Shown: positions 4,925-5,725 of the stretch, in pieces
Position numbering within the stretch: position 1 is the stretch's first letter
Layout of the letters: each line of letters starts with the position of its first letter
Source: a virus
Lineage: Duplodnaviria; Heunggongvirae; Uroviricota; Caudoviricetes
Direction: 5' to 3' (one strand)
Length of the DNA stretch: 10,601 bases
IMG/VR virus record: IMGVR_UViG_2695420876_000011
Notes under the pieces: generated by a model
The model's input: the letters and a program-made list of their open reading frames with translations, nothing else
Databases searched by the model: none
Told to the model about the DNA's origin: nothing
Made by a program: the position numbers and the translations under genes

Positions 4925-5725
4925 TAGCTTTAACGGATCTTTATTGCAGGATATATCCTAAAATGACTAGGCTGTGTCCCTTAATTACGTAACCGTTGAT
5001 AAAAGAATCGGATGCAGCCAGTTTTACCATCGCCAGATAATTTCTCGCCGTTTTGTCGTAACGCATAGCAATGCGGCGGTATTCTTTCAGGCAACCAAAA
5101 CACCGTTCAACGACGTTGTGATTGCGATACGCATCACGATCAATCCGTGCACGTCCATCTGATGCCATTTTTTTCATTTGAGTTTCGGGGGATGATTGCC
5201 TTTATGCCTTTATTTTTCAGCTCGTTACGCGAACTAGCTTTCATGAGACTGCCCGGGGCTTAGTACGATATTTAACGGGAGGCCGCTTCCGTCTGTTGCC
5301 AGATGGATTTTGGTGCCCAAACCGCCTCGAGAGCGACCCTGCCCATTATCTCCGTCGATATTGGGATGTTTTTTTGAGCCCCGTCGGCGCATTTAAACGC
5401 CCGGATATTACTACCATTCAGCGCTGTGGCAGACCAGTCAACAAAGCTGTTCGCATCAAGTAGTGAAAGCAATCTGTTGAAAATGATGTTAATTACGCCT
5501 GACTTTGACCAACTGTTAAAGCGGTTATAAACGGTTTACCATGGCCCATATCGTTCGGGTAAATCGCGCCATGGTGTGCCGGAACACAACACCAGAACAT
5601 GCCATTGATGATTTTACGATGCTCTGCCCATGAGATACCTGCCCGTCGTGTGACAGGTTCTGAGGCAACAAGGGGTTGATGATGGTCTATACTTCATCGG
5701 GGAGGTCGTAGCGAGCCATGATTCA
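4925..5725 (-). mobile_element. Degraded IS5-family (IS427/ISL2-group-like) insertion sequence remnant
   Basis: On the minus strand: a canonical transposase N-terminus MARYDLPDEV followed by a stop (start codon at 5719-5717); shifted-frame pieces resembling the conserved N-terminal region; and a C-terminal fragment (4941..5177) with the DDE_Tnp_1 signature ...YRNHNVVERCFGCLKEYRRIAMRYDKTARNYLAMVKLAA. Multiple frameshifts and stops indicate an inactive element. Ends and inverted repeats were not defined. Confidence 0.6.
4941..5177 (-). pseudogene. IS5-family transposase C-terminal fragment
   Basis: The 78-aa ORF carries the conserved C-terminal motif of IS5-family transposases (NxVERxFxxLKxxRRIAxRYDKxAxNYLAxVxLAA) but lacks the N-terminal catalytic region in frame. 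Confidence 0.6.

Follow-up and report, generated by a model that had tools for sequence, protein, structure and literature searches.

The locus

The DNA considered here is a stretch of 10,601 nucleotides (nt) from a virus of the Caudoviricetes (IMG/VR record IMGVR_UViG_2695420876_000011), hereafter the window, and its subject is a decayed insertion sequence (IS) of the IS5 family, IS427-group-like and related to ISSfl7, which lies on the minus strand at 4970-5776 and measures 807 nt, the full-length reference having 916 nt. On its left stand an attachment site (att) core (4838-4867, minus strand), in which 30 nt from the 3' end of ssrA are repeated where two tandem prophages meet, and the att-proximal spacer of the second, e14-like prophage (4868-4967). 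On its right follow a second spacer (5777-5962), a three-gene cassette similar to the phage-defence system CmdTAC (PD-T4-9; 5963-7282, plus strand), and the tyrosine integrase gene of the e14-like ssrA prophage (7309-8478, minus strand). The relic is thus 102 nt away from the att core and inside the second prophage. The explanation favoured here, with a probability of about 0.9, is that a single IS5-family element inserted in a non-coding spacer of the e14-like ssrA prophage, decayed there and is now a passenger.

Identity and ends of the insertion sequence

An IS5-family transposase whose N-terminus, middle and C-terminal signature survive in different frames had been predicted at this place, and all the pieces were found, spread over the three minus-strand frames and broken by stops. 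The reverse complement of 5719-5687 (ATG GCT CGC TAC GAC CTC CCC GAT GAA GTA TAG, with the start codon at 5719-5717) encodes the first ten residues, MARYDLPDEV, and then a stop, which is due to a TGG>TAG change at 5688 (W11*). The middle of the protein is represented by the pieces HRKIINGMF, PWRDLPERYGPW and TVYNRFNSWSKSGV separated by a stop, and GTKIHLATDGSGLPLNIVLSPGQSHES ending in a stop, and the C-terminal part by DRDAYRNHNVVERCFGCLKEYRRIAMRYDKTARNYLAMV. The latter region retains an open reading frame (ORF) of 78 amino acids (aa) with an ATG start (4941-5177, minus strand), which contains the VVERCF motif and matches Pfam DDE_Tnp_1_2 at 5.4e-7. In Pfam comparison the relic fragments match DUF4096 (PF13340, 9e-14), DDE_Tnp_1 (PF01609, 2e-4) and DDE_Tnp_1_2 (PF13586, 5e-7), that is, the combination of a DUF4096 N-terminus with a DDE_Tnp_1 or DDE_Tnp_1_2 domain that marks IS5-type DDE transposases, while the frame-repaired conceptual translation scores 224.9 bits with the NCBIfam model NF033580 "IS5 family transposase" (cut-off 110). 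The identification as such is already known, as identical copies carry the RefSeq label "IS5 family transposase; frameshifted; internal stop".

The ends of the relic were set by alignment to full-length relatives, and here the original prediction (4925-5725) had to be corrected: it began 45 nt early and ended 51 nt short, so that the 5' leader and the left inverted repeat (IRL) were missed. The IS-derived DNA runs from 4970, the outer end of the right inverted repeat (IRR; GGCTGTGTCCC), to 5776, where it ends with GGGACACA. The IRR is intact (GGCTGTGTCCCTTAATTACG; 4970-4989, plus strand), as judged from the alignment and from repeat pair I1, and the IRL is a recognisable remnant (5764-5776, minus strand) that matches the IRR at 12/13 positions and has lost its three terminal nt (GGC, coding strand). 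On the coding strand the IRL junction reads AAAAT followed by TGTGTCCCGTAAT, compared with TA followed by GGCTGTGTCCC in the references; on the window strand GGGACACA is followed by ATTTTATCG, beginning with ATTTTA, compared with GGGACACAGCC followed by TA in the references. At the other end the dinucleotide TA (4968-4969) directly precedes GGCTG and is a candidate target-site duplication, since three full-length relatives (L002, L003, L004) have TA before GGCTG and again after CAGCC. The extension of the inverted repeat I1 past the IS ends (35 nt, 71%) and a direct repeat D6 in the flanks (GATATATCCTAAA and GATATATTTTAAA) were considered as traces of a nested element or a long duplication and rejected as chance similarity of AT-rich sequence, because neither is in register with the IS ends and the duplications of this family are 2 bp long.

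Relatives of the element

The nearest element named in the RefSeq annotation produced by the Prokaryotic Genome Annotation Pipeline (PGAP) is "IS5-like element ISSfl7", annotated as "ISSfl1 ORF1/ORF2" on Shigella flexneri plasmid pCP301 (AF386526) and multi-copy in Shigella and in some Escherichia coli. Full-length ISSfl7 copies are 916 nt long, start with GGCTGTGTCCC, end with GGGACACAGCC and have TA on both sides, and a -1 shift at C AAA AAA A leads from the first of their two ORFs (DUF4096 N-terminal) to the second (DDE C-terminal). The relic resembles ISSfl7 in the terminal sequence GGCTGTGTCCC, the inverted repeats, the gene order and the A7 site, and is collinear with it over the whole length; the run itself (5359-5365, minus strand) is the same A7 at which ISSfl7 copies pass from frame 0 to frame -1. 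It differs in nucleotide identity (88.1-88.4% over 812 aligned nt), in length (807 versus 916 nt) and in nine inactivating lesions. In the ISfinder convention isoforms share about 95% of nucleotides or more. By this measure the relic would be an IS different from ISSfl7 and neither a copy nor an isoform of it.

The closest sequences are single-copy E. coli elements annotated as "IS5 family transposase" (92.1-93.0% identity), which belong to the same sub-lineage and have diagnostic bases in common with the relic, the IRL variant TGTCCCGTAATAG among them. Two of them are a copy adjacent to ompC (e.g., in NZ_CP074749, a pseudogene) and a copy in O157:H7 encoding WP_087498070.1; both stand at other genomic sites, carry independent lesions and are without the 104-nt deletion of the relic. 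In the ompC-adjacent copy the start codon reads ATA, the slippery run is an A8, and a stop interrupts the gene. The O157:H7 copy (strain 4276, L005 2556-3399) has open ORFs but an A6 run, with which a +1 and not a -1 shift would be needed. Its annotation includes a programmed frameshift, and 5 synonymous and 10 non-synonymous changes are private to it. In view of the A6 run and of these counts this copy may be defective too and was dropped as an "intact" reference, and therefore the ISSfl7 copies were taken as the functional reference.

According to PMC3281130, members of the IS427 group such as IS1248, ISPpa2 and ISPaes1 are small (832-865 nt for those of Paracoccus), have 2-bp direct repeats and short terminal inverted repeats, and possess two overlapping ORFs with a conserved frameshift motif, the full DDE motif being present only in the fusion protein. 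The full-length relatives of the relic show the same features, with a length of 916 nt that is somewhat above the Paracoccus range; the relic itself keeps the slippery run, and its functional features are gone. The label IS427-group-like refers to the features described in that study.

Any match to the relic was present in 60 of the 5426 complete E. coli genomes. Single copies at 91-93% identity were found in about 33 records, ISSfl7 at about 88% was multi-copy in a few Shigella-like strains and on many Shigella plasmids (up to 36 places per genome), and the very same relic, at 99.7-99.9%, was found in two complete genomes. Both of the latter have a single matching place each, and the possibility that intact copies exist elsewhere in the genome, raised with the original prediction, thus found a negative answer in these two. 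The sub-lineage looks extinct in sequenced E. coli. The left-flank spacer of the IS (4868-4967, 33% G+C) occurs in the complete E. coli genomes only together with the relic (2/5426). Among deposited phage genomes no match to the relic or to the cassette was obtained, and only the integrase/xis region matches Citrobacter phage phiNP (82%).

Inactivating lesions

Three nonsense codons are present in the relic, W11* (5688), K62* (5538) and Q163* (C>T at 5236), together with four 1-nt indels, each within a short homopolymer run: deletions at 5663/5662, 5594/5593 and 5020/5019, and an insertion at 5174. Just downstream of Q163* a 104-nt internal deletion (junction 5230/5231, minus strand) has removed residues ~165-199 including LADKAY, which we take, from the motif, to be the site of the second catalytic Asp of the IS5-family transposase. 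The presumed first catalytic Asp, assigned likewise from the ALDGS motif, is changed by G>A at 5418 (minus strand; D102N), so that two of the three presumed DDE residues are lost. With nine inactivating lesions in total, the relic has neither the intact DDE triad nor the open transposase frame of a live member. The catalogue is complete, since its arithmetic closes: 916 - 104 - 3 + 1 - 3 = 807 nt.

Age, substitution pattern and possible function

The view that the element is old and heavily decayed agrees with its 7-12% divergence from every relative found, with the lesions described above and with private changes that are unconstrained and AT-biased. A substitution was counted as private when four comparators agree and the window copy differs. 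Of 36 such changes 31 are GC>AT and 2 are AT>GC, 25 being C>T or G>A, and the G+C content of the relic is 47% versus ~52% in the consensus of relatives. Private coding changes comprise 12 synonymous and 19 non-synonymous ones, while between the ISSfl7 lineage and the 92% lineage 56-58 synonymous and 17-25 non-synonymous changes are counted. From this difference we infer that purifying selection acted during the deep divergence of the IS and not on the private changes, that is, that decay after the insertion proceeded without selection.

The suggestion that the element contributes outward promoters was not confirmed. A consensus scan of 4600-6100 yielded three promoter-like sites, compared with 3.9 +/- 1.9 in shuffled sequences, and none of them reads out of the IS. 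One site (5880-5908, TTGAAA-17-TATTAT) lies on the plus strand outside the IS, in the spacer before the cassette, and is the only one upstream of the operon, whose own promoter it would be. Its -35 element TTGAAA lines up with TTGAAT/TTGTTT of IS-free relatives (by eye, 54% mean column identity). Another (5804-5777, minus strand) extends over the IRL end and reads inwards, at the expected place of a transposase promoter, and the third is distant (4631-4602). The transposase strand of the relic is directed away from the operon, and no Rfam family was found in the window. The relic is consequently without demonstrable present function.

It is nevertheless conceivable, if quite improbable, that the relic has been co-opted, either by regulating or insulating the defence operon or attL, or through a truncated transposase-derived protein made from the 78-aa ORF. 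Such a role would fit the retention of the relic at 99.6-100% identity in every copy of the prophage end seen, the survival of that ORF with its ATG start, and the minus-strand promoter-like site across the IRL end. However, near-identical copies fit a recent spread of one prophage equally well, promoter-like sites are neither enriched nor outward, the relic has no Rfam match and an unconstrained substitution pattern, and the IS-free relatives retain the operon without it. Two readings in which the relic would not be inert are very unlikely: that it now works between attL and the cmdTAC-like operon as a spacer, an insulator or a regulatory module, and that the GC>AT excess reflects targeted cytosine deamination. 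They are backed by the GC>AT skew and the universal retention in the prophage and by nothing beyond them, and a search for a deaminase-type context around the C>T and G>A changes revealed no preferred 5' or 3' neighbour.

Probable insertion into a non-coding spacer

It had further been supposed that the insertion may have brought or disrupted neighbouring cargo. This proposal is contradicted by prophages, collected by protein search and contig look-ups, in which the same cassette occupies the same slot without an IS. Toxin homologues with 62-69% identity (source names Citrobacter, Enterobacter, Pectobacterium) belong to the same three-gene cassette, which adjoins a homologous Arm-DNA-bind_2 integrase and, in three loci (L017, L018, L021), also the ssrA core. 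The spacer, counted from the end of a 24-nt core match to the toxin start codon, is 283 nt in L017 and L018 and 311 nt in L021; in the window it is 1096 nt, or 289 nt when the 807-nt relic is subtracted. Two stretches are recognisably similar across the IS-free loci and the window, namely the first ~40 nt past the core and the promoter-like region in front of the toxin gene. Since IS-free orthologous cassettes fill the same slot at near-equal spacing, the IS would have neither delivered nor disrupted the cargo, and the event appears to be a simple insertion into a non-coding spacer with the loss of at most a few nt at the IRL end.

The opposite view, that the IS delivered the cmdTAC-like cassette or caused a deletion or rearrangement of cargo (as a former composite transposon, by one-ended transposition, or by an adjacent deletion that clipped the IRL), can draw on the missing IRL tip, which faces the cassette and shows no TA duplication, and on the occurrence of the cassette and both flanks in E. 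coli, where none of them was seen apart from the relic. Against it stand the orthologous cassettes of other genera, IS-free in the same slot between integrase and core at 283 versus 289 nt, and an IRL end that is short by only 3-4 nt; a composite transposon is excluded because the window holds a single IS copy. This view is most unlikely, and simple insertion is preferred.

Reality of the frameshifts

A stretch of 1125 nt, which starts at the core, includes the relic and ends at the operon start, aligns gap-free at 99.6-100% in eight other, independent assemblies (L001, L007/L008, L011, L013-L016; the window's own contig, L012, stands in the same alignment table and outside this count). Identity is 100% in five of them, 99.9% in 23AR1101 and 99.6% in FDAARGOS_1287. 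As every indel is common to these eight assemblies, two of them complete genomes, the frameshifts are real and not sequencing errors. An intact IS with a programmed -1 shift plus sequencing errors has next to no chance of being correct. In its favour, IS5-family relatives do use such a shift at an A7 run, which the relic keeps, and all four 1-nt indels sit in short homopolymer runs, as certain sequencing errors typically do. Against it, neither the three in-frame nonsense substitutions nor the 104-nt deletion are frameshifts, the eight assemblies carry every indel, and RefSeq annotates the identical copies as a pseudogene.

The neighbouring operon

The cassette encodes, in order, a toxin (5963-6532, 189 aa), an antitoxin (6529-6894, 121 aa) and a SecB-like chaperone (6896-7282, 128 aa) with overlapping stop and start codons. 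The chaperone matches PADLOC PD-T4-9_C (3.7e-35) and Pfam SecB, while the toxin matches PADLOC PD-T4-9_A weakly (0.0072). The toxin motifs HGTS, WLGxGAY41FF and E144-Y145 are conserved across 12 aligned homologues (H11, T13 and A40 in at least 90%, the rest in all) and are reminiscent of CmdT, which has an H-Y-E triad with catalytic Y41 (PMC11618068). In structure comparison the top hits of its AlphaFold model (mean predicted local distance difference test score, pLDDT, 78.8) are NatT, exotoxin A domain III (1AER), PARP13 and a diphtheria-toxin homologue, all of them weak and none with E <= 0.001. PD-T4-9 (PMC9519451) was renamed CmdTAC. The system of ECOR22 defends against T-even phages: its SecB-like chaperone responds to the capsid protein of T4, the antitoxin undergoes degradation, and mRNA becomes ADP-ribosylated by the toxin, an ADP-ribosyltransferase (PMC11618068). 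Gene order, chaperone and toxin features all place the neighbouring operon with CmdTAC/PD-T4-9, and it is a predicted phage-defence toxin-antitoxin-chaperone system of this type. In 5.8 billion proteins the rare toxin family forms 13 clusters, and among 46 pattern matches in species-representative genomes none was confirmed.

Between the relic and the operon the source assemblies call an 82-aa ORF (5718-5966, plus strand), which starts inside the relic antisense to the transposase start, crosses the spacer and overlaps the toxin start codon. It is AT-rich and of low complexity, has no family match on record and is probably spurious.

The att core and the variable prophage end

The att core was delimited as the overlap of the left match of the window, which ends at 4867, and the right match, which starts at 4838. 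Positions 4838-4866 are identical (29/29) to the 3' end of the annotated ssrA in strain E110019, are unique in the window and gave no chance match in 200 shuffles. No transfer-messenger RNA (tmRNA) gene was found in the window by ARAGORN or Rfam, and the tRNA scan was also empty, so the core is a bare 30-nt copy without the ssrA gene body.

The window corresponds to contig CYAG01000065.1 of E. coli assembly GCA_001277575.1. Its left part (1-4867) is the right end of a lambdoid effector prophage with a tail fibre gene, two NleG-family genes, espW, espM2 and a dinI-like gene, and in strain E110019 this end abuts ssrA directly. The type III secretion effector genes (the two NleG-family (DUF1076) genes, espW and espM2) occupy 646-3816 and the dinI-like gene 4318-4566. 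The right part (4838-10601) is the int end of an e14-like prophage present in FDAARGOS_1287 and 23AR1101, where the match starts exactly at the core; it carries int and yfdPQR and, further on, ymfK/T/L and head and tail genes. The integrase was assigned by the Pfam domains Arm-DNA-bind_2 and Phage_integrase and by RefSeq annotation. An integrase of the icd-integrating e14 type was ruled out, as relatives at 94-95% identity lie beside a one-mismatch ssrA core, next to ypjA or glaH. The homology to these integrases breaks within the last ~11-19 codons of int (window 7342-7367).

The presence of the IS had been taken to argue for a long-standing insertion hotspot. The region is truly variable, with three different neighbours at the ssrA core and differing genes between int and core, and this part of the claim stands; the IS itself is not evidence for it. 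Across the same 30-nt core the left neighbour of the e14-like end is the effector prophage in the window, a P2-like prophage in FDAARGOS_1287 and a CP4-57-like integrase pseudogene in 23AR1101. Relatives with 94-95% identical integrases, whose slots adjoin the one-mismatch ssrA core, hold between int and core a three-gene set including a STAS-like protein (C1) or one 259-aa gene (p11A). By these comparisons the int-to-core interval is a variable cargo slot of the e14-like ssrA prophage family, with the IS as one more passenger. In FDAARGOS_1287 (L008, NZ_CP070071.1 76000-125900) the e14-like prophage apparently divides the P2-like prophage in two, and at one of the junctions tail-fibre and tail-fibre-assembly genes face each other, which suggests an inversion between the tail-fibre regions of the two prophages.

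Origin and fate of the relic

According to the favoured explanation a single IS5-family element, IS427-group-like and ISSfl7-related, with two ORFs, an A7 frameshift site and TA target duplication, would have entered an e14-like prophage that integrates at ssrA. It would have landed in the ~290 nt of non-coding DNA that separate the att core from the CmdTAC-like operon, at a point ~100 nt away from the core and 186 nt before the operon start codon. The insertion was presumably tolerated because no gene was interrupted and the promoter region of the operon was left on the operon side. Unselected decay would then have followed through nonsense mutations, homopolymer slippage indels, the 104-nt deletion in the catalytic domain, the loss of two of the three presumed DDE residues and the loss of one inverted-repeat tip. 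In this state the relic would be unable to make transposase, and its mobilisation in trans is most likely impossible too. It hitch-hikes with the prophage at each ssrA integration, including the one beside the type III effector prophage in the window.

Several observations weigh against this account. The TA duplication is visible at the IRR end only and the IRL end is clipped, which leaves room for a small rearrangement there. The spacers of the IS-free relatives are ~50-60% alike, and the statement that nothing was lost is one of length and position, with no exact empty site. The GC>AT excess (31:2) is stronger than ordinary E. coli mutation bias would lead one to expect, the lack of demonstrable function rests on a consensus promoter scan and Rfam, and the single matching place per genome refers to the two complete genomes.

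Meaning of the finding

Dead insertion sequences are commonplace in prophage cargo regions, and the relic in itself is of little importance. The map of the region is corrected by these results: the "operon" is predicted to be a phage-defence toxin-antitoxin-chaperone system, and its divergent CmdTAC-like cassette is the most interesting nearby item, while the IS would be a passenger in the variable int-to-att slot and neither caused the hotspot nor testifies to it. With its private lesions the relic may serve as a marker of one e14-like ssrA prophage with a rare CmdTAC-like cassette, which can be traced between strains and between ssrA tandem arrays.

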